Of a stretch of 53,311 nt of DNA, positions 22,102 through 48,188 are shown piece by piece; the first letter of the stretch is position 1, and every line of letters begins with the position of its first letter. The stretch covers positions 1 to 53,311 of the forward strand of contig CAZCLC010000003.1 of NCBI GenBank assembly GCA_964499455.1, written 5' to 3'. The notes below the pieces were generated by a model that was not told where the DNA came from, made no database searches, and saw only the letters and a program-made list of their open reading frames with translations. The DNA comes from an uncultured Candidatus Saccharibacteria bacterium. Lineage in GTDB: Bacteria; Patescibacteriota; Minisyncoccia; Phycocordibacterales; Phycocordibacteraceae. A program made the position numbers and the translations under genes.

Positions 22102-23367
22102 CTAAGGCTGAAGTCTAAATGACCATAATGATCCATCTCTTTTATTTATAAACGATAGTATATGTTGTTTTGGATCAACCGAGGGAGCGATAATATCAAA
22201 CGGTTTCTTATTCTCTTTTGTAAGATTAAACAATAATTTTACATACCTATTTTTCATATTGATTTTCCATATATTATCTGTGAATGAAATTTTACCTTGG
22301 TACCAATCATCTGGGTAAGATGCTACTGGTGTTTTTTCAGGAATACCACAATATATAGCAGTATCATCTTGTGACCATACACATTTATTTGAAATAGTAG
22401 AAATTGGTAAATTAATCATTGTGTGGTTCGGTATAGATATTATTCCCATTTTTATTAAACCATCTGGACTATCATAATTTATAAGCGCCTCTGTACCGGC
22501 GTGGTTTATCAATGCAGTCAATCCTTTTTTTGGTCCAGCAACAGTAGTAAACATACCTGTCTTTTTATTTACAATAAATGCATACCCACCAATATCTGCA
22601 GACGGTTTAGTATATATGAAATAATTTTTCAAGCCCGCAAACATAACCCGTATATTTGTAAGTGGTGTTTGAAAAGCTGTATATATATTAGCAGCATCTT
22701 TTTGTGCACTTTTTATTATTGAACCATTCTCTCCAGAAGAGACCATAAGAATATTATCAGTTCCTTGTGTAAGTATTTGAGTTAATTCTTGTGGAAGGAA
22801 AAAACCACCAATTCCATTCTGTGGAAGCGCGTATGTCGCAATTTCACCATTACCAGTGTTTCCTGTGTGAGATATATAACGTACGTATACCAATGATCCG
22901 TCTGATAACCATACTGCTGAATTTATTCCTGGGATAGTTTTATTTGAAATACGCGTTTGTCTACCTGTTAAAGAATTATATTGATATATATTACCACTCT
23001 GTTGGTCTATATATTTTATAATAACTACTGCGTTAGTTAGTGTTGATGTGCTGTTATTTTTGATATCAAGAGAAAATATTGCTGGTACAACAGGGCCAGT
23101 GCTTATTTGCACAAGCCTTGCGAGTGTGTTTGTTGTACTGGTTGTAGTTCCTGTCCCATTGTTTATACTACCAGTGGTATACCTATTGTTATTAGTTATA
23201 TTTGTTGAAGAAGTATTCTCTTTTACAACTGGGAATGATGATTGTGTAGTAGTGTTTGATTTTGTAACAACAACATATGCACTATGATTTGCGAAGAATA
23301 AAACATACACACCGATTCCAATCGCAATGATGAAAAAAAAACTTATAATAATGAGTGTCTTTCGCAT
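22102..23367 (-). CDS. Membrane-anchored exported protein, probable beta-propeller; last gene of the T4SS-like cluster
   Basis: N-terminal TM, Thr/Asn linker, WLSDG and KCVWSQD blade-like motifs, YPDDWYQG. Confidence 0.65.
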   Translation of the reverse strand: MRKTLIIISFFFIIAIGIGVYVLFFANHSAYVVVTKSNTTTQSSFPVVKENTSSTNITNNNRYTTGSINNGTGTTTSTTNTLARLVQISTGPVVPAIFSLDIKNNSTSTLTNAVVIIKYIDQQSGNIYQYNSLTGRQTRISNKTIPGINSAVWLSDGSLVYVRYISHTGNTGNGEIATYALPQNGIGGFFLPQELTQILTQGTDNILMVSSGENGSIIKSAQKDAANIYTAFQTPLTNIRVMFAGLKNYFIYTKPSADIGGYAFIVNKKTGMFTTVAGPKKGLTALINHAGTEALINYDSPDGLIKMGIISIPNHTMINLPISTISNKCVWSQDDTAIYCGIPEKTPVASYPDDWYQGKISFTDNIWKINMKNRYVKLLFNLTKENKKPFDIIAPSVDPKQHILSFINKRDGSLWSFRLQP

Positions 23368-23416
23368 ATTAGGTTTATATTAAAATTGGGTTATATGTTA
23401 TACATAATAGTATTAA

Positions 23417-23989
23417 TTAAAAAACAATATTAATTGTATAAATACACACCAGATTTGGGTCTGTTGTGCTTTTACAATTATATTCAGCTATATTAGTATA
23501 ATCCTTAGCTTTTTGGCTTGAACAACCACCGCTCACTTTTATGCTCTCAACAAGTCTGGTGCCGGTAGGGATAGTTTCTTTACACAACTGTGTATTTTGA
23601 GACTGTACCGCCGGCTGTGTTATTTTGACACTGCTAGTTCCAAGTTTCATAGATAATGCTGATGGATTAATAAATTGAAAGACAACATATGGAGAAAGTA
23701 CGAGAACAAGACCAAAAATTGCCATCATTATTTTATGTCTGCCAGCTTCTTTATTAGTGACACTTGCACCACTTCCCATCCAAAGGAAACCACCCCAAAC
23801 AATCTCAAGAACAGCTAATATAACAGCAATACCAATTGCATATGTATACAAACTATTTACAAAATGAACTAATGATGTTGATGCTGCATAGTTTGTGAAT
23901 GCCGGGAAACTTGTCAACGGTGCGAATCCGCTAGTAGTGAGCATATACCGTATATTTTTTTTACTGTCTTTAAATCTAAAAATATCCAT
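23417..23989 (-). CDS. VirB2/TrbC-like T4SS pilin with Cys-containing tail
   Basis: AVLEIVWGGFLWM...AIFGLVLVLSPYVVFQFINP two-helix pilin pattern; start moved from 24100 to avoid overlap. Confidence 0.75.
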   Translation of the reverse strand: MDIFRFKDSKKNIRYMLTTSGFAPLTSFPAFTNYAASTSLVHFVNSLYTYAIGIAVILAVLEIVWGGFLWMGSGASVTNKEAGRHKIMMAIFGLVLVLSPYVVFQFINPSALSMKLGTSSVKITQPAVQSQNTQLCKETIPTGTRLVESIKVSGGCSSQKAKDYTNIAEYNCKSTTDPNLVCIYTINIVF

Positions 23990-23996
23990 AATTATA

Positions 23997-24983
23997 TTAT
24001 AAGCCAAATAACCCAAAACTACCTCCTGAATTTGATCCAAATAACAATGATAATTGTGTTTTTGCGCTCTCGTACGTTGTGTTATTTTGCGCCAAGACAC
24101 TTAAAATAGTGTTTCCACTCCCTATACCCTTAGGGCGTACAGTTAATAAATTACCTGTCTGTACATTTGTGCCGTTTAAAAACCATGTAATATTCGGATC
24201 TCCATTTTTGGTAGAAAAACCATATGGAACTGCCGCAAAAGTTGATTCTACTGAACCAATTGATTTTATAGAAGAAAGTGTATGAGTATAATTAATACCA
24301 GTGAGAGGATTATCTTTATATATATAAACAGTAGGCGTACCAGCCATTAGTGTAATCTCTCGTTGCGCAGCTCGTGTACCACGTTGGTTTTTTACTAATA
24401 CAGAGAACACCTCTTTCCTGTACGGAAGAGGAGCATTCACTAATACCGAATCATTTCCTATACCTGAAGCAGCAAGTGTTTGCCCGTTACTTTTCCAAAC
24501 ATATGAAAGAACAGAAGGATTAGTTCCGTTAGTTTGTATATTTGGTATAGCCACAAGCCGTATATTCCCTGTTGTCGGAATAGTTGGTGAACCAAGATAT
24601 CCTAAAGGTGCCGTAGCCAATGGTTCAACCACTAATGCGACGGATGCTGGATGAATAGTAATCGCTTGTTTGTATATATGCCCGTTTGACGTCACTGCTA
24701 TAACTATATACATAGGAACACCAACAGTACCAGTAGTAAATGAAATGGATTTTGATCCTGTACCGACACCAATCTTTTTCTTATTTATATAAACAGAAAA
24801 TATACTGTTAGTAGTTGAAATTGAATTACTTGAAATAGAAATTGTTGCACGTGAATATGGCTGAGGATATGTTGGTGTCAAATTGATAAAAAATGGTGTC
24901 AAATGAGTTGTTTGTGCGAATATATTATGTGGTACAACAATAAAAAATACCCCTAACACAATAATTATTAAAAACTTTTTCAT
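23997..24983 (-). CDS. Secreted beta-rich (Ig/PKD-like) protein
   Basis: Signal peptide ending IFA-Q; repeated LSYVW-x-x-NG and ITWFLNG strands. Confidence 0.65.
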   Translation of the reverse strand: MKKFLIIIVLGVFFIVVPHNIFAQTTHLTPFFINLTPTYPQPYSRATISISSNSISTTNSIFSVYINKKKIGVGTGSKSISFTTGTVGVPMYIVIAVTSNGHIYKQAITIHPASVALVVEPLATAPLGYLGSPTIPTTGNIRLVAIPNIQTNGTNPSVLSYVWKSNGQTLAASGIGNDSVLVNAPLPYRKEVFSVLVKNQRGTRAAQREITLMAGTPTVYIYKDNPLTGINYTHTLSSIKSIGSVESTFAAVPYGFSTKNGDPNITWFLNGTNVQTGNLLTVRPKGIGSGNTILSVLAQNNTTYESAKTQLSLLFGSNSGGSFGLFGL

Positions 24984-25078
24984 ATTATTAAGTATAACGC
25001 ATTAAGTGTATTTATAGCGAGTATTATTTCAATCTGTACTAATCTTTTTTAATAAATAAAATCATAGATACTTTGTTA

Positions 25079-25678
25079 TTATTGTGTTACAAATTGCTGT
25101 GATAGCAATCTTTGTTGTCTGTTATATGCGAGCAATCTTTTTTTATACTGTAAAAAAGCATCTCTATCGTCTTCCATAACTGTCATAATAATGATAGTAA
25201 TACCTATAAGTAGTGATGGTATTATATTTATAAAAGGAATAAGACCAACAATAAGACTTATAACCGCTGCCACTAAGCGTTTTCTTGATCTCGTGTCCAA
25301 AAATGATATGCCTGCTATAGTGAACCAAAAGTAAAATAACATCCACGCGAAAAAATCGATTGCATCAGATAAAATATCACCGACAAAACCAATAACTGCC
25401 GAACCGATACCAGTGAAAATTTCAGCGCCTCCTACAGCTAAGGCTGCTACCGCGCCACCAGCTACACCAAGTGCCTCCGATACACCACTACCTAAAAAGG
25501 ATGTTTTATTTGTTATATATACACTAGTTATTCCACCAATAAGTAATGGTGCTGTTATAAAAAATATTGAGAATATAAAAATAAATATACTGAAGAAAAA
25601 CGCCACACTAAACATAAGAACTGCGCGAGTAATGGGCATTTTTCTTGTTGGTGGTTTTGGCTGTAATAATTGCTTCAT
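25079..25678 (-). CDS. Hypothetical polytopic membrane protein
   Basis: Several TM helices, Gly/Ala-rich, GLIPFINIIP motif; coupled to virB4. Confidence 0.7.
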   Translation of the reverse strand: MKQLLQPKPPTRKMPITRAVLMFSVAFFFSIFIFIFSIFFITAPLLIGGITSVYITNKTSFLGSGVSEALGVAGGAVAALAVGGAEIFTGIGSAVIGFVGDILSDAIDFFAWMLFYFWFTIAGISFLDTRSRKRLVAAVISLIVGLIPFINIIPSLLIGITIIIMTVMEDDRDAFLQYKKRLLAYNRQQRLLSQQFVTQ

Positions 25679-25684
25679 ATTATC

Positions 25685-27517
25685 CTAATGTTGTTTTTCT
25701 TGCTCTGCGTCAAAACGGTTTTTTTCTTTACTTATAGATAGAAGTTGTGAAGGATCTGAAGTGATAATTTGATCTTCAGTATAGGAAGCTACGATTTTAA
25801 TTGCCACATGTTTTAATCCTGCAAAAAACAATCCTTCACCAACGCCAGACTCTAAAAGTAAATATTTTTCCTCATCCGTGAGGTTAAATGTTTTTTGCAG
25901 TAGATCAACTGTTGTTGGGGATTGTTTAAGCAGAATCTGCAATGATGAGTTTGTAAGAATAGGTTTTCCATATGGTGAGCGCAAGAAATCTTCAACATCT
26001 TGCGTAATAGTGGCAACACCAAGATAGTATTTTCGTCCGCGCTTAGCAATAGAATACAAAAACGATGCGGTATCTTCTGATTTCATCATCCACCACGCCT
26101 CATCAATAACAAGTAATCGCTTTTTTAAATTATGTCGTACAACATTCCAAATATGTCTAGAAATTATATACATAGCTACTGGCTTAAGCTCGTCTTCCAT
26201 ATCACGAACGGAAAAGACAATAAATTGTCGATTAATATCAATATTGGTTGGTTTATTAATAAAACCGGACCATGAACCACGTGTGTATTTCGCAAGACGT
26301 TCTACAAGCGAATCACTTCCCTCCATACCTATCAATACTGTTTCAAAATCTGCAAGAAGTGGTGGTTCAGTATTTGAAAAATCAGTTTCTCCAGTGATAT
26401 TTTTTAGGGCGTAAGTTTCAGCAATTGCACGATCTACAATAGAATCTTCCTCGGGACTAAGCCCGCCGAGCATAATTCTAAATAGACCAACCAAAGTAAT
26501 AATATTGTTACGTAAAATATCCTTCGGATCCTCGTCCTCTTTAACTGGCGGTAGATCAAATGGATTGATATGATGTTCAGAAGAAAGTGAGATGTTGAAA
26601 GAGCGACCATCGGTTGCCTCTGCAAGTTGTTCATATTCTCGTTCAGGATCAATAACAATCACATCAGTACCAAACATAAGAGAACGCAAAATCTCAAGCT
26701 TAGCAGCATATGATTTTCCAGAACCGGATTTTGCAAAGAATACTGAGTTATAGTTTTCTAGAGAGAATCGATCAAAAAGAATTAATGAAGCATTATGCCG
26801 ATTTATGCCATAGAGAATACCGCGATCACTAGTCAGATCAAATGATGTGAACGGAAAAATAGAAGAAAGTGGTTCAGTGTTTAATTTTGATTCAACCATA
26901 AGTTCATCATTTTCAAGCGGTAGTATTGTACGAAACCCTTGTTCCTGCTGAAAAAGTGCCGGCTTTGTATAAATTAATTGTGCGTCTAAAATACTGCGGA
27001 TACTTATCTCAGTTTTACTTAACTCTTCTTTTGAGTCTCCATATATTGTTATATATAACCCAACATCAAAAAGACGCTCCCTAGCTTGTTGAAGCCGATC
27101 ACGTAGCATCTCCAGGTTTTGATATGCGGCATCAAGTTTTGGATCTCGTACTAACCCATGATGCTCTCTTTCGTTTATTTGACTCTGTACATCTGCAACT
27201 TTTTTCTGAAAGTTATGAAGCGCTTCCTCAGTATCAATAGGGTGTATAAAAATGGAAACGTCAAGTACTTTATCAAGATTAATAATAGGAGAAAACCATC
27301 CATCACTTAAAAACGCCGGGTATGACACGGTATAAAATGTACGAGCAAATTTTTCATTAAGTGATATTTCTTTAGAACCTATTTTTAAAGCAGTCGGTGC
27401 AATTGTATCAATAAGATTTAATTTATTCTGCGTATAAATATTCCCAGGTAGAACATTAGAAAAATCTAATGCCCCTCGCTCTTTTTTATTTTTATTGAAG
27501 AAATTAAAAAGTGACAT
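25685..27517 (-). CDS. virB4: VirB4/TraC-like T4SS ATPase
   Basis: GILYGIN, AKSGSGKS Walker A, IDPEREY, INPFD, LLVIDEAW Walker B, KRGRKY, TITQD. Confidence 0.88.
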   Translation of the reverse strand: MSLFNFFNKNKKERGALDFSNVLPGNIYTQNKLNLIDTIAPTALKIGSKEISLNEKFARTFYTVSYPAFLSDGWFSPIINLDKVLDVSIFIHPIDTEEALHNFQKKVADVQSQINEREHHGLVRDPKLDAAYQNLEMLRDRLQQARERLFDVGLYITIYGDSKEELSKTEISIRSILDAQLIYTKPALFQQEQGFRTILPLENDELMVESKLNTEPLSSIFPFTSFDLTSDRGILYGINRHNASLILFDRFSLENYNSVFFAKSGSGKSYAAKLEILRSLMFGTDVIVIDPEREYEQLAEATDGRSFNISLSSEHHINPFDLPPVKEDEDPKDILRNNIITLVGLFRIMLGGLSPEEDSIVDRAIAETYALKNITGETDFSNTEPPLLADFETVLIGMEGSDSLVERLAKYTRGSWSGFINKPTNIDINRQFIVFSVRDMEDELKPVAMYIISRHIWNVVRHNLKKRLLVIDEAWWMMKSEDTASFLYSIAKRGRKYYLGVATITQDVEDFLRSPYGKPILTNSSLQILLKQSPTTVDLLQKTFNLTDEEKYLLLESGVGEGLFFAGLKHVAIKIVASYTEDQIITSDPSQLLSISKEKNRFDAEQEKQH

Positions 27518-27523
27518 AATTTT

Positions 27524-28171
27524 TTATGAAAGACGAATAGGGTCTTCTATCTCACCAGGGTTAAATGACCTGAAGAAAAGCTCAATAAGTTCTTCTGTAC
27601 CGAGTGAAATAGTACGTACTCCTGTTGTCGATATACTTGATGCAACTAACGCCATTCGTTCTTGCAGTTGTGTACGTGCCTCTTTAAATATCTCTTCACT
27701 ACCAGTTGTCTGTTCACTAACCTTATTTTTATTATGACTGACAAATCCTGAAAATAAATGTTGTGCAGCTTCTGTGCTATTTTGCGAATAAGGAACAACA
27801 ATATAAAATGATTTAGTCATAATGTTGGTGTTTTCCGTAAAAGTTTTAATAAATGACATATATTCCCGTAACTGAATACGCAATAGTTCTGTTTGTTGTT
27901 TCTTCTTTTTTTCCTCTAAAAGAGAAAGATATGGACGAATATCAATTTTACGTGACTGCACCACTATTTGTATAGAAAAATCAAGAGTGTTAAGAAATGT
28001 TTGAAATCCACTGATAATAGCATTTTGTTCATTGGAAGATTTCAATTCAAAATTAATTGATGAGCACATCAAAACCCCACGATACCCTCCGTTTTTAAGT
28101 ATAATAACTCCTTCACGAATATCTTTAATCGGAACGAAGTTTTGTGCTGATGTTGCATTTGTTGTAGACAT
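27524..28171 (-). CDS. VirB4-associated conjugation-type protein
   Basis: SINFELKS, FLNTLDFSIQI and KSFYIVVPY resemble the protein usually found between PrgI and VirB4. Confidence 0.65.
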   Translation of the reverse strand: MSTTNATSAQNFVPIKDIREGVIILKNGGYRGVLMCSSINFELKSSNEQNAIISGFQTFLNTLDFSIQIVVQSRKIDIRPYLSLLEEKKKKQQTELLRIQLREYMSFIKTFTENTNIMTKSFYIVVPYSQNSTEAAQHLFSGFVSHNKNKVSEQTTGSEEIFKEARTQLQERMALVASSISTTGVRTISLGTEELIELFFRSFNPGEIEDPIRLS

Positions 28172-28177
28172 AATAAA

Positions 28178-28591
28178 TTACATTTGAGTATTTTCTGGTA
28201 TACGTGCGACATCAAGTGATCCTGCAAGCTCGCGTAATTTACTTCGTGTAAGCCTAACAACACGTACTGGCGTCTTTTTTTCGTGTACTGCTGTTGGTTG
28301 TGATTTTACAGATGTATATTTTTTCCATAGGAAAAAGCGTGAGGATGTATAATATTTAATTGCTGCTTCAACAGTATGTTCGAACGGTTTATTATTTATT
28401 TTATAGAACGCTAACGCACTGGCAAAACCGACTGTTGGTATTCCTAACAAAACCGCAATAAAAAACGGCAGATAACGTAATAATAAAAAAAGCAATCCGA
28501 TACCGCCTGCTATATAAACAAATTGTTTAAGAGTGAGCGGACCGATGATTTTACTCTCCATTTCAATAAATTGTGGTACTTGATGCTCCAT
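28178..28591 (-). CDS. PrgI-family (VirB3-like) membrane protein
   Basis: QVPQFIEMESKIIGPLTLKQF followed by two TM helices and INNKPF. Confidence 0.82.
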   Translation of the reverse strand: MEHQVPQFIEMESKIIGPLTLKQFVYIAGGIGLLFLLLRYLPFFIAVLLGIPTVGFASALAFYKINNKPFEHTVEAAIKYYTSSRFFLWKKYTSVKSQPTAVHEKKTPVRVVRLTRSKLRELAGSLDVARIPENTQM

Positions 28592-28652
28592 GTATATATT
28601 AGTATATCTGAAAAATGATACACTGTCTGTGCTGTTTTCCACTTAGTTGGCG

Positions 28653-29162
28653 TCACACTAACGGTTCTCTGTAAGGATCAGCAGTATATTTTTCCACGAT
28701 TGGTTTTTTAGGTGGTGTAGGAATACTCTGAATTGTTGAATGTTCTGGATATGGTGGTTGTTGAGTTGGTTTTTTAATATCCTGAATAGGATGCTGTATT
28801 TTCATTTGTTCTCGCAGTGGTGAAAACACCATTATTTCTATATCATGCATAATGTTATCTACGTTATTTTTATCAAAGCCGTTATTTATCAATACATCGG
28901 ATACTTCTTGAGGGTTCTCCACCCCGATAAGCATAAGAAGTAGCTCATTTTCAAGTACTGCAGATTGTTTTGTTTGAAGCTCATATCGTTGTGCGAGTGT
29001 TGTAGCGACGACTACATATTTTTTTTCTAACAAAAAACCTTTAACTTCTTCAGGTACATTATCTATAAACGCTCGCAGGCTTTCTTGTAGCGTTGGCACC
29101 TTTTTTGAATCTACATCAGTATAGGTATCTTGGTGTTTGGAAGTTTTTTGTGGTGTATTCAT
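28653..29162 (-). CDS. Hypothetical protein with Pro-rich tail and terminal DPYREP motif
   Basis: 169 aa ORF inside the T4SS-like cluster. Confidence 0.7.
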   Translation of the reverse strand: MNTPQKTSKHQDTYTDVDSKKVPTLQESLRAFIDNVPEEVKGFLLEKKYVVVATTLAQRYELQTKQSAVLENELLLMLIGVENPQEVSDVLINNGFDKNNVDNIMHDIEIMVFSPLREQMKIQHPIQDIKKPTQQPPYPEHSTIQSIPTPPKKPIVEKYTADPYREPLV

Positions 29163-29200
29163 AGATGTTTATTTATAACTTTTTAAAATATATCGTAGAC

Positions 29201-31126
29201 TTATGAATCTTGTTCAGAAATATCTTTTTTATCTTTCGCGGACTCTTTGAGTATTTTTTCAATCGTATCAACAAACTTTTCTTTATCATCTTTTGTTGCA
29301 TCCTTAATAATCTTTTTTGCTACGTCTTTACGCCATTTACTACCGTACATACCAAGACCATAACTAAGTTCTCGCATGTTCTTTGCATATAATATCTGGG
29401 GGAAGTTTTTTGATTCACGTTCTTTCATTTCGGATGTCTTTTTTGCAACATTTGCTTCACGCTTTGTTTGTTCGGTAGTAAATTGTTTATTAACATCCTC
29501 AGTTTGTTTTGTTTGCTGATTTATTATATCGTTCTTCTGTGTTTGCAATGTTTGCAGATCTTGCTTGAGTTCAGCTAAGTCATTAGGTGATTTTATAAAA
29601 GTAGAATTAATGGAATCTTCTATTTCTTTAATTTTAGTATCTATTTTTTTAAGTTCAGCGTCACTGTCTTCATTTATTTTCTCTATAGTATTATCAAACT
29701 TTTCTTTTTCGTTTGTGTTTATGTCTTGAAGTATCGTTACCCCTTCTTTCATTCGTTCCGTCTCTTCCTTATCTGCTTTTGTAGGTCTGAGACTCTTCGA
29801 ATATTCCTCAGTTTTCTTAATCTTCTCTTCTTCTGCGCCTCTATACCCTCCTGTTTTTGTTTTTCCCGCACCAATTCCTAACGCACTAAGTCCACCACCA
29901 ATCTTTGTGGCACGTACATCAAAACTTGATTTTGCTGCCCTATCCAACATATCGCCACCAATTCTTCCAAATACCGCACTTCTCCCAATTTTTGAGCTTC
30001 TCCATTTTTCAGAAAGACGTTGACCACTCCATCCGATTGTTTTCTGACCTAACCATCCTACCTGACCAAATGTTGCTCGCCCGCTTATTTTGGTTGCGAA
30101 ACCAGCTGCTTTATTAGATAAACTTTTTGCTACAATGAGAGATACAATAAGTAAACCAATTATAACGGAAAAAGTTAAAAGTAATCCTGACATTGATGTC
30201 GTACCTGGACTGCTCACAGCCGTCCCGTAATTTACTCCGCCAGTAATTGAACTAACAAATGTGCTTTGTGCCATTTTTGTTACCACAAGAAGAAATAATA
30301 ATAATACAGGAGCTAATATTGTTTGGCTTGCAAGAACATGCCACCATTTTTTTCCATAAGAGCTTATAAGTGGTATGCCGGCAAGACCGATGAAACCGAT
30401 AGGTGAAACAATTAAGAGAAACAGTAACACTACAAATCTGGAAATAAGCATGATTGCAATAGCTCCAAATACAAATGCCAATATGAGAAACATAATAATT
30501 CCCAGCAATGCGATCTCTACTTTTTGTCCTGCAGGGAGCTTCGCATTTACTGTACTATATATACTACTTGTTTTTACTGCAGTCATTACTGCGTTTGATA
30601 TTGGCTCAGGGCTTGCGTTAAATGATGTTGGGATAGAGCCACCGTTTATTTGTGCATAAAATTGCGTCGCAAACACATTTCCAGTATCAACGATAAATTC
30701 GGTAAAAAATAGTGAAAAATTCAGTAGTATGGCAACGAGAAGCAGTTTTGGTAATACTTTTTTTGCTCCATAGGTTACATTATCAAGTATCGTTGCGATA
30801 CCGATGGCGATAAAACCAAATACAAGCAAAATGTTTCCAAGGTCGCGGAATAAAGCCCATGCTGTTTGTAGACTTCCAATATCCTTAATATAATATCCCA
30901 TGCGAACAACAGTGTAATACATCGATGCTCCCATAAGTGTTGCTGCAAATTCTACAAGCCAATGGAAAGGTGTCATGAGCATAAGAAGCATATCTGACAG
31001 AATTCCAGGTGAACTGGTATTAGACGCAAATACAAATGAAGTTGGGAACACAATAAATATGAACATTAATACAATTAATGTTGTCAGCTTTTTTTGTGTA
31101 AAATATTTCTGTAAATATATAAGCAT
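29201..31126 (-). CDS. VirB6/TrbL-like polytopic membrane protein with C-terminal coiled coil
   Basis: WALFRDLGN, AILLNFSLF, RFVVLLFLLIVSPIGF, WW motif, about 7 TM, charged coiled-coil tail. Confidence 0.72.
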   Translation of the reverse strand: MLIYLQKYFTQKKLTTLIVLMFIFIVFPTSFVFASNTSSPGILSDMLLMLMTPFHWLVEFAATLMGASMYYTVVRMGYYIKDIGSLQTAWALFRDLGNILLVFGFIAIGIATILDNVTYGAKKVLPKLLLVAILLNFSLFFTEFIVDTGNVFATQFYAQINGGSIPTSFNASPEPISNAVMTAVKTSSIYSTVNAKLPAGQKVEIALLGIIMFLILAFVFGAIAIMLISRFVVLLFLLIVSPIGFIGLAGIPLISSYGKKWWHVLASQTILAPVLLLFLLVVTKMAQSTFVSSITGGVNYGTAVSSPGTTSMSGLLLTFSVIIGLLIVSLIVAKSLSNKAAGFATKISGRATFGQVGWLGQKTIGWSGQRLSEKWRSSKIGRSAVFGRIGGDMLDRAAKSSFDVRATKIGGGLSALGIGAGKTKTGGYRGAEEEKIKKTEEYSKSLRPTKADKEETERMKEGVTILQDINTNEKEKFDNTIEKINEDSDAELKKIDTKIKEIEDSINSTFIKSPNDLAELKQDLQTLQTQKNDIINQQTKQTEDVNKQFTTEQTKREANVAKKTSEMKERESKNFPQILYAKNMRELSYGLGMYGSKWRKDVAKKIIKDATKDDKEKFVDTIEKILKESAKDKKDISEQDS

Positions 31127-31137
31127 ATATTATTCTT

Positions 31138-32703
31138 CTATGAACCACCCCAGTTATTTGAATTAGACGAATTCAAATTATTGATACACTGCTGCACTTG
31201 TGTTTGTAGTACTTGAAGTTCAAGGTTTGCACTTTGTGCAATTTTGTTCATAGTACCAACAGTTGTTGTCATACCTTCAAATGATAGACTATTAGTCTGC
31301 GCTTGTGAGATTTGTTGTACCGTTGGTAATGTACCGTCCGTAATTATTTTTTGAAATTCTGCGCCAACTGCCGCTATTGATGTTGCAGACCCACTGTTTA
31401 TCGCAACTTGTGCATTAGATTTTATTTGTTCAAGTTTAATAAGCCCGGTTCTCGCTGATGTGATAGATACTTGTGTCTCCGAATACTTAATGATAACACC
31501 ATTAAGAGATGCTTTTGCGGTTACAATATTTGAGTATGGTACAGGACACGAGCTGTTTGGTGATGTGTAGTTAATCAATGAGCGTAGAGCATTTTCTGCA
31601 CGACTTTCTGAACTAAGAATCTTTTGTAGGTTTGATATATATTGATGTATGTTACTCTCTTTACGGTTTATAGCATTTTGTAAAGATGTGTTTATTTGGC
31701 TAAGGCTTCCTGTTGGAGTTCCGTTTTTGTATTGACTGATATAAGATGAACTGCCTCCTTGAGACAGAGATGCTATACCAAGTAATCCACCCCCACTTCC
31801 ACCTCCTATTGCTTTTGAAACAAGGTTTTGTGCGAGATTACCTATAATTTCACTAATTTCATCAGCAGATACAAGAGAGCTAATTCCTGAGCCAAGAGCT
31901 TTATCAAGCTGTGCTTTAATTACACTACCAGGTGTTTGTATAGAACAGCTTGTACCATCACTATTACAGTTTGTTTTAGACAAAAAGCCTTGTGCCCAAT
32001 TTGCTTCTACCACTTTGTTTGTTTGAGCATTTGATACACTTGTATTAAGTGCGTTATTTGCTCCCTCGTATGCATAGTATGGATTATTGTTACTGTTTGC
32101 ATTTATTGCTTTCCATCCATTCCATCCACCTGCACCGAAGTCTCCATTGAGGAAAGCGTGCGTGTTTGGTACTGTATTAGACAGTGTTTCGGTGTGTGCA
32201 GACCAATAATTAGAAGCTGTATTTTTAGTGTATGTAGTATTTACAGCATTTGCGATAGTTCTATTATAAGATTGAGAGTATGATGAACCGGTTCCTGCGC
32301 CAGTAACAAATCTGTTTTCAGCAAAATCACCGGTTTGCCCGATATATTTTTTAAGATTGGTCACAAAGCCAGGTCCACTAGTACCGTTTTGGTTAATATG
32401 ATGTTCTGCGATATTTGTTACAAGATCGCTTGTGATTGATCGTAATGTAGATTTTGCTATTATCCACGCAATAGGGTCAAGTGCATACTCTTTTGTAACA
32501 AGTGACGCGGTAAGAATATTTCCAGCTACGATTTTAATGCCATTAATAATTGTTTTTGCCACTACTGTCGGGTCAAGTACAATACCCAAAAATGCATACA
32601 CTGGTCTTGGCGCGGAAACAAACATACCACCAGCAAGAATAAGAAGCATGCTTATTCCTATTAATGTACGCTTGGCATCTTGTTGTAAATTATGTACACT
32701 CAT
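31138..32703 (-). CDS. Secreted Asn/Ser/Gly-rich helical protein (possible VirB5/TrbJ-like)
   Basis: Signal peptide ending VYA-F; VLDP, KEYALDPIAW and QTPGS; adjacent to the VirB6-like gene. Confidence 0.55.
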   Translation of the reverse strand: MSVHNLQQDAKRTLIGISMLLILAGGMFVSAPRPVYAFLGIVLDPTVVAKTIINGIKIVAGNILTASLVTKEYALDPIAWIIAKSTLRSITSDLVTNIAEHHINQNGTSGPGFVTNLKKYIGQTGDFAENRFVTGAGTGSSYSQSYNRTIANAVNTTYTKNTASNYWSAHTETLSNTVPNTHAFLNGDFGAGGWNGWKAINANSNNNPYYAYEGANNALNTSVSNAQTNKVVEANWAQGFLSKTNCNSDGTSCSIQTPGSVIKAQLDKALGSGISSLVSADEISEIIGNLAQNLVSKAIGGGSGGGLLGIASLSQGGSSSYISQYKNGTPTGSLSQINTSLQNAINRKESNIHQYISNLQKILSSESRAENALRSLINYTSPNSSCPVPYSNIVTAKASLNGVIIKYSETQVSITSARTGLIKLEQIKSNAQVAINSGSATSIAAVGAEFQKIITDGTLPTVQQISQAQTNSLSFEGMTTTVGTMNKIAQSANLELQVLQTQVQQCINNLNSSNSNNWGGS

Positions 32704-33767
32704 AGTTTTTGTTGTTGCTGTGTTGCAGTTATTTCATCCATTAGATTTACAAATGATGCTCCAGGATCTCCAGGCTTAAGCACTACTCCAGAAGAACGAA
32801 ATACATCACCCATATCGGTAAACGCCTGAGCAAGTGCCAATGCACTTTTTTTATATTGAGAAAGAGCAAGCATAGTAATAATTGGGTCGGTATTTATTTT
32901 TGCAAGATTATTTATTACACTTGCCATACTCGCGTAAGCATTAATCATTTCAAGATGTGCTTGTACGACTTCTGTTGGAACTGTCATTTGTGCCAACGCA
33001 GCCGCTGCAGCACTACAGATATCAGCGATTGCTTGAATATGTGCAACTGCCGATGTATTAGAATTTTGTGCTGCTTCTTGTAAATATATAAGCACGCCTT
33101 TATCTTGTGATATTGTATGTTTAGAAAATGCCTGTTGCACTCCCGCAGCATACGCGCGCATTGCGGCCGTACCTGACCCACCTATTTTAATTTGAGAAAG
33201 TGTGCGATATGGTGTCGGTGCAGTTACTTGATTATTTAGCTGCAACATAGTTTGTTTTACAACTTCAGTGAGTTGCTGTTTTGAAAGCGCTGACCCTCTA
33301 TTTAATTCTTTTTGTGCTAAGTATATAGAAAAGAAATTTTTCGCAAATATATCTGTAAGAGATCCTTGTGTTGGCACAGGACCATATCCAGTATTGTCGG
33401 CTTTTACTGTTGTTGATGTAGCCGTCTTCGGTAGAGTAAATGCTTTCGGTACTATAAGACCTTTTGCAACAGCTTCCCCATCTGTCATACCAAGTCCGAA
33501 TGTATCTGCTTTATACGGATTTGTTCCATATAACGCTTCTTCCCAATTTGGTAACCCGTCGTGGTCGCTATCTTTATTTGCTAAGGTTTGCAAAAGAGTA
33601 TCGGTAGAGATTGCATCTGCGTGATTAGTAGATAATCCACCGTTTCCTAAAATATACGCACCAACAATAACAACACAGGCAAATAATATTGCCGACACTA
33701 TACCCCATTGTCGTGTTATCCAAGTCACGGTATATATAAGTATACCAAGACAAACAACAATAAGCAC
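32700..33767 (-). CDS. Membrane-anchored protein with a TSP3-like Ca-binding repeat
   Basis: DSDHDGLPNWEEALYGTNP...DTFGLGMTDGEAV; start uncertain (GTG). Confidence 0.7.
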   Translation of the reverse strand: MLIVVCLGILIYTVTWITRQWGIVSAILFACVVIVGAYILGNGGLSTNHADAISTDTLLQTLANKDSDHDGLPNWEEALYGTNPYKADTFGLGMTDGEAVAKGLIVPKAFTLPKTATSTTVKADNTGYGPVPTQGSLTDIFAKNFFSIYLAQKELNRGSALSKQQLTEVVKQTMLQLNNQVTAPTPYRTLSQIKIGGSGTAAMRAYAAGVQQAFSKHTISQDKGVLIYLQEAAQNSNTSAVAHIQAIADICSAAAAALAQMTVPTEVVQAHLEMINAYASMASVINNLAKINTDPIITMLALSQYKKSALALAQAFTDMGDVFRSSGVVLKPGDPGASFVNLMDEITATQQQQKL

Positions 33768-44261: not shown

Positions 44262-45155
44262 ATGGGTATTGAAGCACTAAAAAAACATTTTCTTGAATAT
44301 ATTGAGATTGAACGTGGTCGTTCCATAAAGACAGTTGAAAATTATGATCGTTATCTATCAAGGTTTTTTATACAAGCCAGTATTAAAAATACAAATGATA
44401 TTTCTGAAAAATCAATACGTGCATTTCGTCTGTGGCTTAACCGTCAACCTGGAAGTACAGGCACATTAAAACGTAGTACACAGAATTATTATCTTATCGC
44501 GCTACGTGCTTTTTTAAAATTTCTTCGTAAACAAGAAGTATTTTGTGTATCACCTGAGCGCATTGAGCTTGCGAAGTCGCCCGAACGCTCACTTGATTTA
44601 ATTAATCATACTGAACTTTCTCGTTTATTAAGCGCTCCACATGGAACGGATGAGAAAAATATTCGCGGCAGAGCAATTTTAGAGCTTTTGTTTTCAACGG
44701 GGCTGCGTGTTTCAGAGCTTTGTGCACTTAATGCTGATATTGATATGTCTCGTGGTGAGATTTCTGTTCGTGGAAAAGGCGATAAAGTTCGTGTTGTATT
44801 TATATCCCCTTCTGCAAAAAATGCAGTTGAAGCGTATATACATATACGTAAAGATATGGAAGAAGCACTTTTTGTAGGTATTTCAAAAGGGAAAAAACGT
44901 AGTGAACGTATTACTTCGCGTTCTATTGAACGTATTGTAAAAAATTGTGCTATACGTGCCGGTATTACAAAAAAAGTTACACCGCACGTACTTCGTCACA
45001 GTTTCGCGACTGATCTTCTTTCAAACGGCGCTGATTTACGTAGCGTTCAAGCCCTTTTAGGTCATGCAAATATTGCCACGACCCAAATATATACTCATGT
45101 TACTGATGCTCATCTGCGTGAAATCCATAAAAAATATCATAGTAATCACCAATAA
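44262..45155 (+). CDS. XerC/XerD-family tyrosine recombinase
   Basis: SAM-like N-terminal domain; TGLRVSEL, RGKG, TPHVLRHSFAT, LGH, TTQIY catalytic set. Confidence 0.93.
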   Translation: MGIEALKKHFLEYIEIERGRSIKTVENYDRYLSRFFIQASIKNTNDISEKSIRAFRLWLNRQPGSTGTLKRSTQNYYLIALRAFLKFLRKQEVFCVSPERIELAKSPERSLDLINHTELSRLLSAPHGTDEKNIRGRAILELLFSTGLRVSELCALNADIDMSRGEISVRGKGDKVRVVFISPSAKNAVEAYIHIRKDMEEALFVGISKGKKRSERITSRSIERIVKNCAIRAGITKKVTPHVLRHSFATDLLSNGADLRSVQALLGHANIATTQIYTHVTDAHLREIHKKYHSNHQ

Positions 45156-45184: not shown

Positions 45185-45949
45185 ATGCGCATAGTTTCTT
45201 GGAATGTAAACGGTTTACGTTCAGTTGCTAAACATAATTGTTTTATACCATTTTTGAAAGAAACCAAGCCGGATATTTTTTGTTTACAAGAGACAAAAGC
45301 AAATCCGGAACAGTTATCAGATGAAGTACTTAATCTGGGAGGTTTTTCATCTTTTTTTTCATCGTCACAAGTGCGTAAAGGATATAGCGGTGTTGCATTA
45401 TATTCAAAACAAGAGCCACTTTCCGTTTCATATGGTATGGGTATACAAGAATTTGACCAAGAAGGACGAATTATTGTTGGAGAATATGAGGATTTTTGGC
45501 TTTTAGGCGTATATTTTCCAAATGGTGGGCGTGGACAGGACCGTCTGGAGTATAAACTCCGTTTTTACGATGCCTTTTTGCAATTTATACAAAGATTGCG
45601 TAATACAAAACCTGTCATTTTTTGTGGTGATGTAAATACTGCCCATGAAGAAATTGATCTCGCTCGTCCAAAAGAAAATGAAAATAATACTGGTTTCCTT
45701 CCCGAAGAGCGGGCGTGGTTGGATGAAGTTATACGTACAGGATATGTTGATACATTTCGAGATAGACATCCAAAAAGTACAGGTATGTACACATATTGGG
45801 ATGTAAAAACACGTGCTCGTGATAGGAATGTTGGATGGAGACTTGATTATTTTTTTGCATCAAATGAAATTGCACGACGCATAAAAAGTGCAAACATTTA
45901 TACAGATATATATGGTTCTGACCATGTGCCTGTCTCTATAACTCTATAA
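45185..45949 (+). CDS. xth: Exodeoxyribonuclease III / AP endonuclease
   Basis: SWNVNG, LQETK, GYSGVA, YFPNG, GDVN, WRLDY, GSDHVP. Confidence 0.95.
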   Translation: MRIVSWNVNGLRSVAKHNCFIPFLKETKPDIFCLQETKANPEQLSDEVLNLGGFSSFFSSSQVRKGYSGVALYSKQEPLSVSYGMGIQEFDQEGRIIVGEYEDFWLLGVYFPNGGRGQDRLEYKLRFYDAFLQFIQRLRNTKPVIFCGDVNTAHEEIDLARPKENENNTGFLPEERAWLDEVIRTGYVDTFRDRHPKSTGMYTYWDVKTRARDRNVGWRLDYFFASNEIARRIKSANIYTDIYGSDHVPVSITL

Positions 45950-46005
45950 AGGACACCATAAAGGACAGTTATCCACACCCAACCACTTTACGTATGTCCT
46001 TTATA
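45945..46005. promoter_or_regulatory. Perfect DnaA box flanked by TATAAAGGACA repeats
   Basis: TATAAAGGACA 45945-45955, ATAAAGGACA 45958-45967, TTATCCACA 45969-45977, TGTCCTTTATA 45995-46005. Confidence 0.6.
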
Positions 46006-46150
46006 AGGATAGACTTGTACTTGGACATATTAGTTCTTTGGAAAAAGTTCTTTCGCTTTTATGTTTTTCATTAATATGTTCCGATAATGGGCGATCCCAT
46101 AAATAAATAAATACATACAATAAAAAATAATAAAGCAAATAAAATAAAAT

Positions 46151-46234
46151 AAAAACCACCAAATTATCTCCCAGCGGATTACTAAAAAATAAGCCCCAAA
46201 TCTAAAATTTTGATCTGCACAAATGGTGGTTTTT
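46151..46234 (-). ncRNA. Candidate three-stem structured RNA
   Basis: Closing stem AAAAACCACCA/TGGTGGTTTTT; inner stems CAGATC/GATTTG and GGG(C)TTATT/AGTAATCC rely on G-U pairs on the minus strand. Confidence 0.45.
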
Positions 46235-46327
46235 TTATTTCCATTTTTATTTCACCATAATCTTTTTTAATAAATGGGGCATTTACACAAGCAATAAAAG
46301 CTCATAATTATTACTATGTTTCCGATT

Positions 46328-46369
46328 TTACTACCAGCCCCATTTCACGTGAAATGGGGCTGGTGGTAA
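46328..46369. promoter_or_regulatory. parS: parS-like site inside a 32-bp perfect palindrome (42 bp with one G-T pair)
   Basis: ACCAGCCCCATTTCACGTGAAATGGGGCTGGT; core matches the parS consensus TGTTTCACGTGAAACA. Confidence 0.75.
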
Positions 46370-46441
46370 TTCTGTAGCAACATACGGCTTGTTATATGCT
46401 ATATTGCAGTATAGATGATTATTTACAACAAAACCTCGCAG

Positions 46442-46457
46442 TATTTCACGTGAAATT
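46442..46457. promoter_or_regulatory. parS: parS-like site
   Basis: TATTTCACGTGAAATT. Confidence 0.72.
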
Positions 46458-46535
46458 GAAGCCAATGCACGAGATCACTAACAATATGAGACTCCACATA
46501 ACCAAAAGGAAGTAATGCGACAATTTAACATATAC

Positions 46536-46564
46536 AATATTTGGACATCCGATGTCCAAATATT
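46536..46564. repeat. 29-bp palindrome (REP-like)
   Basis: AATATTTGGACATC-C-GATGTCCAAATATT. Confidence 0.8.
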
Positions 46565-46640
46565 ATTGAATAGTCGCTCTACCGCCACAGCAAAAAAAAG
46601 TGGGCACTCCAGATGGTGTCACTTATATATGACTACTTAT

Positions 46641-46686
46641 AAACACTCCCTATTCCATTTCACGTGAAATGGAATAGGGAGTGTTT
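46641..46686. promoter_or_regulatory. parS: parS-like site inside a 46-bp perfect palindrome
   Basis: AAACACTCCCTATTCCATTTCACGTGAAATGGAATAGGGAGTGTTT. Confidence 0.75.
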
Positions 46687-46727
46687 CAAAATCAGCAGTA
46701 TGACCTGTATAACTTTTTTGTGAAAAC

Positions 46728-48188
46728 TTAGCGTACGTGATGTTTTTCTAATATATTCTTTATTTCCTGCTCTTCTCTTTTTTCACTTCCAGCTTTTCCT
46801 ACTTCCCCAAGTTTTTTTAATTCATCATTAGGTAATACTATAAGTTCTTTAATTCTATTGTTTAGATAGCTTAATGTGTTCTTTTCTGGGTTTTCAAGTA
46901 CATCTTCAAGAACAGTATTTAATATCCACCCTATGCGCGGTCCTGCTTTCACGTGAAATGTATCCATAATTGTTCTCCCATTCACCTTTAACATTTTGAC
47001 TGACAACGGGTCTCTGAGTGCCTGTTCAACCATTGCTTTATATTTTCTGAAGCGAAACGGTTGTTCTTTTGGTCTGCCTGTGCCAACACGGTCGCATATA
47101 CGTAGATTGAGTAGATCCCATATATTTTCACTTCCGACATTTTTTATCATCCTACGAACAGCAGATAATGTTATCTGGTCAGGGTCAGAGAAAAACATAT
47201 GCCACCGTACTAAACTGACAACTTTTTCTATCGTTACACGTGAAAACCTCAATTCTGTTAATGCTTTTCTCGTTACACGTGAACCAACTACTTCATGCCC
47301 ATGGAAAGACCAGTCTTTTTTTTCTTCAGACCACCGTCTCGTCTCTGGTTTTGAAATATCATGGAAAAGAGCCGCTAAACGTATATCAAGAGGCCATTTT
47401 TTATCGGCTGCATGCTGCATTGCTCGTATTAAATGTTCAAAAACATCAAATGAATGAGCCTGATTTTGTTTAACTTCAATTCCTCGTGTAAGATCCGGTA
47501 TTATATATTTTAAAACGCCAAGTTTTGCAGCGAATGTTAATGCTATTATTGGTTGGTCAGATTGTAAAATACGTATTAGTTCATCTCGTATACGTTCCTT
47601 AGAAACAAAGGCGAGGACAGACGCCTTTTTTTGTATTGCTAAAGCTGTGTCTGTGTCAAGTGCAAAATTAAGTTCAGAGACAAGTCGTAATGCACGCATA
47701 AGTCGTAATCCGTCTTCTTCAAATCTATCCTGTGCTATACCTACAGCACGTAAAACACCATGTTTCAAATCATCTTGTCCTTTATAAGGGTCAATAATAT
47801 GTCCTTTAGAATCATAAGCCATTGCATTTATTGTAAAATCTCTACGCGCTAAATCTTCTGTTATTGATGCTCCAAAAGAAACAGAATCTGGACGGCGTTT
47901 GTCACTGTATATTGATTCTGTACGATACGGAGTTATCTCTATAATATGCAAACTTTCTTCTTGTGTATTAAGCACAACACCTACAGTACCGAAATCATTA
48001 GTATAGAATGTTTCTTCAAATATATCCTGAATCTCTTCTGGTTTTGCGTTAGTCGTTATATCCCAATCCTTCGGCTTTCTGTTTAAAACAATATCACGTA
48101 CACAACCACCGACTAGGTATGCTTCGTAACCGTTTGTCTGCAATGTATTAACTATCGTATGTATTTCATTTGGAATAGAGTAGGGCAT
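46728..48188 (-). CDS. cca: CCA-adding tRNA nucleotidyltransferase with HD domain
   Basis: VGGCVRD, DWD, RRDFTINA, EDGLR, ERIRDE, FHDISKP, FHGHE. Confidence 0.92.
   Translation of the reverse strand: MPYSIPNEIHTIVNTLQTNGYEAYLVGGCVRDIVLNRKPKDWDITTNAKPEEIQDIFEETFYTNDFGTVGVVLNTQEESLHIIEITPYRTESIYSDKRRPDSVSFGASITEDLARRDFTINAMAYDSKGHIIDPYKGQDDLKHGVLRAVGIAQDRFEEDGLRLMRALRLVSELNFALDTDTALAIQKKASVLAFVSKERIRDELIRILQSDQPIIALTFAAKLGVLKYIIPDLTRGIEVKQNQAHSFDVFEHLIRAMQHAADKKWPLDIRLAALFHDISKPETRRWSEEKKDWSFHGHEVVGSRVTRKALTELRFSRVTIEKVVSLVRWHMFFSDPDQITLSAVRRMIKNVGSENIWDLLNLRICDRVGTGRPKEQPFRFRKYKAMVEQALRDPLSVKMLKVNGRTIMDTFHVKAGPRIGWILNTVLEDVLENPEKNTLSYLNNRIKELIVLPNDELKKLGEVGKAGSEKREEQEIKNILEKHHVR
46945..47286. 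promoter_or_regulatory. Three intragenic parS-like sites in cca
   Basis: GCTTTCACGTGAAATG 46945-46960, CGTTACACGTGAAAAC 47232-47247, CGTTACACGTGAACCA 47271-47286. Confidence 0.6.

Follow-up and report, generated by a model that had tools for sequence, protein, structure and literature searches.

The consensus of parS, the chromosomal site recognised by ParB, is the 16-bp palindrome TGTTNCACGTGAAACA, and to our knowledge this recognition is regarded as near-invariant across bacteria. Streptococcus pneumoniae has a ParB-parS-SMC system that lacks ParA. The present analysis concerns a cluster of parS-like sites in a contig of 53,311 nucleotides (CAZCLC010000003.1, the whole of which is called the window below) from the assembly GCA_964499455.1 of an uncultured Candidatus Saccharibacteria bacterium, where the sites lie in and beside cca, the gene for the CCA-adding tRNA nucleotidyltransferase. 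An earlier note on this DNA had seen here a centromere-like locus of variant parS sites, two of them extended into long perfect palindromes, and had suggested that the specificity of the cognate ParB is altered and that the sites may also act as cruciforms or hairpins. No paper on parS with cruciforms or within long palindromes was found in the literature and, among the matches listed, none dealt with parS sites in Patescibacteria, the Candidate Phyla Radiation or Saccharibacteria.

The way in which ParB reads these sites has been described for Caulobacter. According to Jalal et al. (2020; PMC7383237), parS is characterised by guanine at position 1 and adenine at position 6; R173 of Caulobacter ParB hydrogen-bonds guanine 1, Q162 is named among the parS-contacting residues, and R173 and G201 are given as conserved across all ParB orthologues. 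Positions 179 and 184 are variable, position 184 tolerating any residue for parS binding in a one-hybrid screen, and adenine 1 is read by Gln173 only when there is a lysine at 179 or 184. Set against this background, the reading that we favour, with moderate rather than high confidence and on the strength of sequence comparison, is that the region is a parS hub for the single ParB of this genome, that position 1 of the sites has changed from G to A in the clade to which the genome belongs, and that the long palindromes would be gene-end hairpins seeded on parS and grown by inverted copying.

A parS-like hub tied to cca

The assembly (here G000) comprises 566,873 bases in 32 contigs, with about 35% G+C and a completeness rating of 96.5%; the window is its contig C3. 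A scan of the window for ATTTCACGTGAAAT gave three exact copies, clustered in a gene-free spacer just as the earlier note had reported (Table 1), and a one-mismatch copy, cTTTCACGTGAAAT, within cca, which the note had missed. When up to two mismatches were allowed there were five matches in the window against 0.74 expected, a number reached in none of 100 shuffles. The central 12-mer TTTCACGTGAAA occurs four times in the 566,873 bases, always between positions 46343 and 46958 of C3, and all 12 core bases are matched at each of the four sites. The genome-wide scan that had been proposed as a check therefore found sites that are not scattered. They are few and clustered on the origin side, as is usual for chromosomal parS, all four lying within 616 bp and the first of them 25.5 kb from dnaA. 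The earlier figure of 27 kb to oriC needs correction: the distance obtained here is one of 25.5 kb to dnaA, oriC itself not being mapped. GC skew in the window tracks gene orientation and places no origin, and DnaA boxes with at most one mismatch are not enriched in it (23 against 20.8 expected). For a 300-kb region of the relative G017 the trough of the cumulative skew is broad (710-820 kb), with the minimum bin beside dnaA; this is compatible with dnaA as an origin marker but cannot separate origin from hub.

Outside the core the sites depart from the consensus. At position 1 they have A on seven of the eight half-sites, C on the remaining one and G on none, and their outermost bases are C..G where the consensus has T..A. 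The two perfect 16-mers differ from the parS consensus at four of 16 positions, and a genome-wide scan found no site within two mismatches of it; canonical GTTTCACGTGAAAC and any Noc-site word are both absent from the whole assembly. A full match to the 16-bp consensus, one of the marks of a chromosomal parS site, is accordingly lacking here.

Conservation of the locus was followed in genomes of the genus and order (given as G numbers) and in relatives' loci, metagenome contigs included (L numbers). The exact core TTTCACGTGAAA is present in 27 of 40 relatives, against none of 40 for a reversed control word. Where cca is complete (18 genus loci), sites with no more than one mismatch recur at fixed slots, numbered by the nucleotides before the cca stop: slot -875 is occupied in 14 loci, slot -515 in 12 and slot -228 in four. 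The first of these is embedded in the codons H/x-V-S-R-E-R and the second in K-F-S-R-E-T, and the second is also found in three other families of the order. Thirteen of the 18 loci carry one to four further sites within 460 nt past the cca stop; as a whole, the hub takes in fixed slots in cca and the roughly 250 bp that follow the gene. Third-codon-position identity at the -875, -515 and -228 slots is 0.80, 0.60 and 0.73, respectively, against a median of 0.39; of 484 four-codon windows ordered by this measure the slots come 4th, 36th and 9th, an indication that the DNA sequence as such is constrained. Of the 15 TTYCACGTGRAA words in five relatives with long contigs, 14 are at the cca locus, 24-62 kb from dnaA. 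Taken together, the conserved slots at cca and this origin-side location mark the 3' half of cca plus the downstream spacer as the putative parS hub of the lineage. Three sites are gone from G000 itself: the one at -875 (Arg to Lys), the one at -515 (Glu to Val, with TTTCACGTGTAA left behind) and the stop-codon site of its closest kin. It retains the -228 slot along with its three spacer sites. As these comparisons have it, the location of the hub is conserved while individual sites turn over.

The genome contains a single ParB_N gene, on contig C4 (100.8 bits), and so has the cognate chromosomal protein that such sites call for. Its product of 380 amino acids scores 161.8 against TIGR00180, above the cut-off, and is intact: it carries a GERRLRA box, and its first 215 or so residues resemble the solved structures of Spo0J, ParB and Noc, of which Spo0J and ParB are the best relatives (E 2.6e-40 and weaker). 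Close homologues are named in their sources as Paceibacteria/Parcubacteria (candidate phyla radiation), and a ParB was found in 133 of 150 genus genomes. As regards ParA, PF13614 has no match in G000 and PF01656 has sub-threshold matches only, and PF13614 is likewise unmatched in 25 of 30 genus genomes. An SMC-like gene (C12:9371-11617) encodes a protein of 748 amino acids with head-domain matches and a score of 518.7 bits against TIGR02168, below the cut-off of 567; it is the sole SMC-like gene of G000, and its product has about two thirds of the usual SMC length. The earlier statement that neither parA nor parB is present in the window was correct, the only ParB_N match being on C4, and in G017, which is a single contig, some 400 kb separate parB from dnaA and 343 kb separate it from the parS hub. 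The search for parAB and smc that the note had advised thus returned one ParB, an SMC-like gene and no ParA; on the genome-wide absence of ParA, and on the conservation of the hub in relatives, the note had been silent.

Its central proposal, a centromere-like parS locus, is borne out: these are the only sites in the genome, they are origin-proximal here and in all five long-contig relatives, the same cca locus is used throughout the genus, and the ParB is canonical. Since ParA is missing and an SMC-like ATPase is present, the hub would most likely serve origin organisation or SMC loading. ParB would nucleate at the hub, which would in turn organise the origin region and recruit or load SMC, with no ParA motor involved.

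The change at position 1 and the ParB protein

The base adjoining TTTCACGTGAAA was tallied at the non-coding hub sites of 18 relatives and, for comparison, at those of a clade consisting of G000, G108 (a GTDB species of the genus), L084 and L092, the last two of which are metagenome contigs sharing the locus that were found with the 18-mer CCATTTCACGTGAAATGG. Every one of the 24 sites in the relatives has G on one half-site or on both, and the 48 half-sites are made up of 26 G, 13 C, six T and three A. In the clade only one of 12 sites has a G half-site, and the 24 half-sites are made up of 17 A, five T, one G and one C. Typical words in the relatives are GTTTTCACGTGGAACA and GCTTTCACGTGGAACA, in which one half, TGTTCCAC, is fully canonical. 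The symmetric A-type 14-mer is confined to two of 151 genus genomes, with three copies in G000 and two in G108, and in 300 further genomes of the order it appears only as single copies, in three of them. The site-bearing part of the spacer cannot be aligned between G000 and G108, apart from the sites themselves with their A..T ends. The contrast in G half-sites (24 of 24 against one of 12) and the survival of the A..T ends as islands together indicate that the shift is real, clade-specific and maintained, and the variant CA..TG ends to which the earlier note drew attention share this standing. Selection at the level of the DNA is to be seen in the relatives both in the in-gene slots and in these islands in the G000 and G108 spacer.

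No corresponding change is apparent in the part of ParB that would read position 1. When G000 ParB was aligned to solved Noc, which has Q/K/K/R at the four specificity positions, it was found to have R/S/N/G (its own residues R147, S153, N158 and G175, at an offset of 26), so that the inspection of specificity residues recommended earlier finds the equivalents of R173 and G201 retained. By the published rule the protein falls, on its predicted sequence, in the parS-specific R-x-x-G class. The recognition helix SREYVSNS(I/L)RLL is identical across all 30 genus ParBs examined. Four DNA-side residues set the G000 protein apart from the 29 others. N136 corresponds to Q162, where 26 of the 29 have His, and N158 to 184; in place of K161, 26 of the 29 have Glu, and Y173 precedes the equivalent of G201 by two residues. 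All four are present in P0001, a homologue that is 96% identical, while homologues at 81-83% identity have only N158 in common with G000.

Each of the two genomes nearest to G000 is missing one partner of the system from its assembly. A-type sites are present in G108, but no ParB match was obtained there, by protein or by Pfam family, in an assembly that is 90% complete; G100 has a ParB that is 82% identical and carries N158, but neither a TTYCACGTGRAA word nor a cca match. Palindrome-rich hubs may be prone to assembly gaps.

With G1 lost at the sites and both the arginine and the glycine kept in the protein, altered specificity can only be called putative. The half of the earlier claim that concerns the DNA stands, in that the ends are variant; the half that concerns ParB is not established, since the helix is as in the 29 other proteins, the R173 and G201 equivalents are kept, and only flanking DNA-side residues are unique. 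The ParB of the clade may read position 1 differently, or may no longer need guanine there; that it has a true preference for adenine is a suggestion to be entertained with reserve.

Long palindromes and competing readings

Sites 1 and 3 both read CCATTTCACGTGAAATGG, and the perfect palindromes of 32 and 46 bp of which they form the centres, with their differing outer arms, are exactly as the earlier note described them. The two sets of outer arms are unrelated to each other and single-copy in the genome. Folded as RNA, the 32-bp palindrome gives -29.8 kcal/mol (z -6.35) and the 46-bp palindrome -39.2 kcal/mol (z -7.54). A dispersed repeat of the repetitive extragenic palindrome (REP) or miniature inverted-repeat transposable element (MITE) kind was considered and set aside, the outer arms occurring only at their own palindrome, bar one chance word with one mismatch.

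Palindromes of this kind are abundant in the genome. G000 has 129 perfect inverted repeats with arms of at least 11 and a loop of at most 8, and 50 of these have arms of at least 15, where our own rough estimate of the numbers due to chance is about 3 and 0.02, respectively. Crude calls of open reading frames (85% coding) put 39 of the 50 outside genes, 25 of them between tandem genes, six between convergent and three between divergent ones, and five at contig edges; 23 of the 39 are within 100 nt past the nearest gene end (median 52 nt). The density in the relatives' loci (228 kb) is the same as in G000, at 0.228 per kb, or 0.079 per kb for arms of at least 15. The perfect hairpins of G000 span 22-61 bp and many have no T tract; transcript ending in this lineage may be unusual. 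If a class of gene-end hairpins is defined by arms of at least 15, a loop of at most 8 and an intergenic position soon past a gene end, the 46-bp palindrome belongs to it. Because such hairpins are found genome-wide and genus-wide, the 32- and 46-bp palindromes would be no special device of the centromere. The proposal of a cruciform or hairpin as a special centromere feature is accordingly not supported, all the more as one arm looks recently inverted-copied.

The evidence for copying comes from relatives. None of the 38 exact-core sites in the first 27 loci of relatives to be examined has a palindrome of more than 20 bp, and G108 has no long palindrome round its sites. In L011 (27-nt arms) and L020, a hairpin after cca holds parS-like words in its stems, so that the overlap of hub sites and gene-end hairpins recurs in different forms; in L084 the same 18-bp core lies in a 40-bp perfect palindrome with a third, unrelated arm. 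The most informative locus is L092, which has CCCATTTCACGTGAAATGGGG followed by TTAGCGGTAATTTT. Against the right arm of G000, CTGGTGGTAATTCT, 11 of 15 positions match past the shared 20-bp core; the other flank of L092 is unrelated, and its palindrome is just 20 bp. The left flank in G000 repeats the right arm as its inverted complement, save for one later mismatch. The one-sided form of L092 also occurs as a contig piece, with three differences over 46339-46371. Template switching extends the arms of inverted repeats, as described in the abstracts of PMC7202029 and PMC3820800, and the presence of the arm on one side only in L092 points to the copying of one flank, inverted, to the other side, which is the signature of a template switch. 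The palindromes would then have been seeded on the parS palindrome and enlarged by inverted copying of one flank, a step suggested by this one comparison.

Several points weigh against the reading of the region as a parS hub with a clade-specific A at position 1 and hairpins grown on parS. G to A is the commonest mutational path, the clade spacers are AT-rich (G+C 0.32-0.39 against 0.46-0.57 in the relatives' loci), and drift from G to A at a weakly read position could account for some of the shift. All four members of the clade are kin, and their sites are possibly shared by descent, so that the tallies of half-sites overstate independence. The SMC-like protein falls short of the usual length, and Pfam recognises no hinge in it. 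The 32-bp palindrome has the form of the gene-end class, but 364 nt separate it from the closest called gene end. Neither palindrome can be identified as an intrinsic terminator: the hairpins are strong, but their tails, AGTAAAATCG and ATAAGTAGTC, have no T tract, and the terminator scan calls neither. The polarity of arm-copying is taken from one relative with no outgroup, and the G000 and L092 spacers align poorly as a whole, with local similarity only. Lastly, the equivalents of R173 and G201 are kept in ParB, and by the rule of PMC7383237 the A-type sites should be poor ones.

What these points leave room for, above all, is a true switch of specificity, in which ParB has co-evolved to prefer A at position 1 on both half-sites, as a natural intermediate between parS and Noc sites, through changes outside the recognition helix. 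We regard this as possible but doubtful. It would fit the disappearance of G half-sites from 11 of 12 clade sites as against 0 of 24 in the relatives, the excess of A over T (17 to 5), the A-type ends kept between G000 and G108 in a diverged spacer, and the unique DNA-side residues N136, N158, K161 and Y173 with their recurrence in P0001. It sits badly with the retained arginine and the unchanged helix SREYVSNSIRLL, with the occurrence of T and C at position 1 in the clade, and with N158 being present in the 81-83%-identical ParBs as well; moreover, the two genomes that might have displayed co-variation each come without one partner (no ParB match in G108, no cca or site match in G100), and in PMC7383237 any residue at 184 allows parS binding, while read-out of A1 needed Gln173 plus a lysine at 179 or 184. 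Tentative, too, is the fuller scenario in which the clade moved its centromere word from G to A with the arginine kept, compensating at the equivalents of Q162, 184, 187 and 199 and so providing a natural intermediate between parS and the Noc-binding site (NBS), and in which the parS palindrome seeds long palindromes by template switching. A decaying centromere, with AT pressure driving weak relic sites and ParB-parS on its way out of a reduced genome, is improbable. The low GC of the clade, the three ancestral sites lost from G000, the missing ParA and the lack of a detectable ParB in the 90%-complete assembly of G108 would all suit it; but the ParB of G000 is intact, has its GERRLRA box and resembles solved ParBs over its full length, all four sites keep a perfect 12-bp core, new sites have been gained, and the ends are kept across two species in a spacer that cannot be aligned. 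It is very unlikely that the sites are owned by some other CACGTG-reading protein, whether a regulator or a Noc-like paralogue. A at position 1 does match the Noc-binding site at that position, according to PMC7383237; however, the sole ParB-family gene has R/S/N/G and not Q/K/K/R, position 6 is parS-like, relatives hold canonical TGTTCCACGTGAAAC-type sites at the same places, and the genome contains no NBS word. The sites themselves were also compared with the NBS and rejected as such, A1 being in agreement while position 6 is A, the one ParB-family protein is R/S/N/G, and ATTTCCCGGGAAAT is absent from the genome.

The palindromes admit two further explanations. That they are functional DNA structures of the centromere, acting as cruciforms or single-strand hairpins, is quite improbable, even though two of the three spacer sites in G000 and one L084 site are at the exact centre of perfect 32-46-bp palindromes, and perfect symmetry without wobble pairs is what would be expected of a function, or an origin, at the level of DNA. 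There are 129 such palindromes across the genome, mostly at gene ends and at the density seen in relatives; site 2, site 4, all the G108 sites and the 38 exact-core sites of relatives have palindromes of 20 bp or less; and the arms are not conserved between kin. It is extremely unlikely that the palindromes are artefacts of assembly. In the one public DNA run that holds the stretch (share 0.56), contigs do end at the centres of the palindromes, and no contig crosses a palindrome in full; but within the 53-kb contig both palindromes are embedded in unique sequence, the centres and 28 to 38 bp of each are recovered in the contig pieces, and independent metagenome contigs have palindromes of 20 and 40 bp on the same core. 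That run may be the source sample, and it therefore lends no independent support and says nothing on expression; no RNA run is listed as holding the stretch.

Surroundings of the hub and comparison with known systems

The region that we read as a parS hub has as its non-coding part a spacer of 778 bp between two convergent genes, bounded by the stops of ExoIII (45949) and cca (46728). It contains no Pfam-bearing open reading frame: small frames of 53, 50 and 44 amino acids have no Pfam match, and the 53-residue frame is not conserved in G108. The surroundings listed by the earlier note, namely the Xer recombinase, the ExoIII-family nuclease, a DnaA box, a palindrome and a candidate RNA, were all recovered (Table 1).

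Table 1. Features of the window in and around the parS-like sites (coordinates in the window)
Feature	Coordinates	Strand	Remarks
dnaA	19373..20806	-	Origin-region marker; dnaN at 18014-19117, then rnpA, yidC (group at 18.0-22.1 kb)
Xer-type tyrosine recombinase	44262..45155	+	
ExoIII-family nuclease	45185..45949	+	Convergent with cca
Genus-conserved non-coding block directly 3' of the ExoIII stop	45950..46030		TAAAGGACA twice in direct orientation, perfect DnaA box, inverted TGTCCTTTA
Conserved hairpin element CCACCA...TGGTGG, flanked by A/T runs	46146..46239		AAAAACCACCA ... TGGTGGTTTTTTT; candidate RNA or terminator
Perfect 32-bp palindrome round site 1	46333..46364		21-nt arms at 95% over 46328-46369, one mismatch
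parS-like site 1, ATTTCACGTGAAAT	46342..46355		16-mer CATTTCACGTGAAATG; exact match; centre of the 32-bp palindrome
parS-like site 2, TATTTCACGTGAAATT	46443..46456		Exact copy of ATTTCACGTGAAAT; without extended palindrome
29-bp palindrome AATATTTGGACATCCGATGTCCAAATATT	46536..46564		Between sites
Perfect 46-bp palindrome round site 3	46641..46686		Starts 42 nt after the cca stop
parS-like site 3, CATTTCACGTGAAATG	46657..46670		Exact match; centre of the 46-bp palindrome
Relic half-site just 3' of the cca stop	46714..46727		cca strand TAA g TTTTCAC aaaaaag; full site in close relatives
cca, CCA-adding tRNA nucleotidyltransferase	46728..48188	-	Pfam PolyA_pol + HD; NCBIfam CCA families; 3' half plus downstream spacer is the putative hub
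parS-like site 4, GCTTTCACGTGAAATG	46946..46959		Inside cca, codes T-F-H-V-K; genus-conserved slot -228
Decayed in-gene site, genus slot -515	47233..47246		TTTTCACGTGTAAC on the cca strand; Glu to Val in F-S-R-V-T

The conserved block behind the ExoIII gene has its direct repeats of TAAAGGACA 11 bp apart and includes the only perfect DnaA box of the window, TTATCCACA (45969-45977). The same arrangement of the block is found in relatives, and a perfect DnaA box stands beside the hub in G017 too. The block might be a regulator site or an iteron-like element. The palindrome AATATTTGGACATCCGATGTCCAAATATT has related copies at C12:16617-16645 and C26:422-448, and the corresponding spacer of L092 has it in a 58-bp palindromic version; it could be either a binding site or a member of a small repeat family.

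The hairpin element at 46146-46239 is near-identical in G108 and L084 and folds on both strands (z -2.9 and -3.7), and the terminator scan calls a T-tract terminator within it on the minus strand (46177-46156). It could be a small RNA or the true end of the cca transcript; in the latter case the three parS sites of the spacer would be transcribed, as part of a 3' region. At the gathering threshold, Rfam recognises only tRNAs in the window; it has no family in the spacer at E up to 5, where there are only microRNA-type chance matches to the palindromes, and nothing but tRNAs in ten relatives' loci at E up to 0.01. Between dnaA and the hub, the stretch 22102-33767 is occupied by minus-strand genes that include a type IV secretion pilin, a TraG/VirB4-like ATPase, PrgI-family proteins and several Pfam-less reading frames, and could be a conjugation or secretion island near the origin.

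If the only centromere sites of the lineage do carry A at position 1 and are read by a ParB with its arginine intact, then position 1 would be dispensable for some ParBs, or else specificity would shift by another route; such a route to new ParB specificity would lie beyond the published change of Arg to Gln. Since no site in G000 is within two mismatches of the 16-mer, standard parS scans, which allow two mismatches at most, would overlook this centromere entirely. In the genus as a whole the picture is that of a centromere that stays put while its sites turn over, with a hub tied to cca, sites embedded in codons, and no ParA. The comparison of palindromes would, for its part, offer a natural example of arm-copying at a putative protein-binding palindrome.

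Among described systems, the locus resembles parS and ParB (Spo0J) of the Bacillus subtilis and Caulobacter type in the central 12 bp TTTCACGTGAAA, in the clustering of sites near the origin, some of them within genes, and in a ParB with a GERRxRA CTP box and a helix-turn-helix; the relatives also carry the TGTTCCACGTGAAAC word. It differs in having A1 on seven of eight half-sites and C..G rather than T..A as the outermost bases, and in a hub that is tied to cca and not to parAB, with parB some 400 kb from dnaA in G017. With the system of Streptococcus pneumoniae it shares ParB, parS, an SMC homologue and the absence of ParA, whereas the SMC-like protein here is of only 748 amino acids with no hinge Pfam match. 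With Noc and its site, ATTTCCCGGGAAAT, it has in common A1 and the outer ATTT..AAAT frame (as given in PMC7383237), but position 6 is A and not C, there is no Q/K/K/R protein, and the sites are clustered on the origin side rather than scattered. As to the palindromes, the closest parallel is the template switching at quasipalindromes of E. coli and yeast, where, in the abstracts of PMC7202029 and PMC3820800, an arm is likewise copied in inverted form across a short palindrome to give perfect symmetry; in the present case the process is deduced from natural genomes, and 6 to 14 bases per arm would have been added at a putative protein-binding site.

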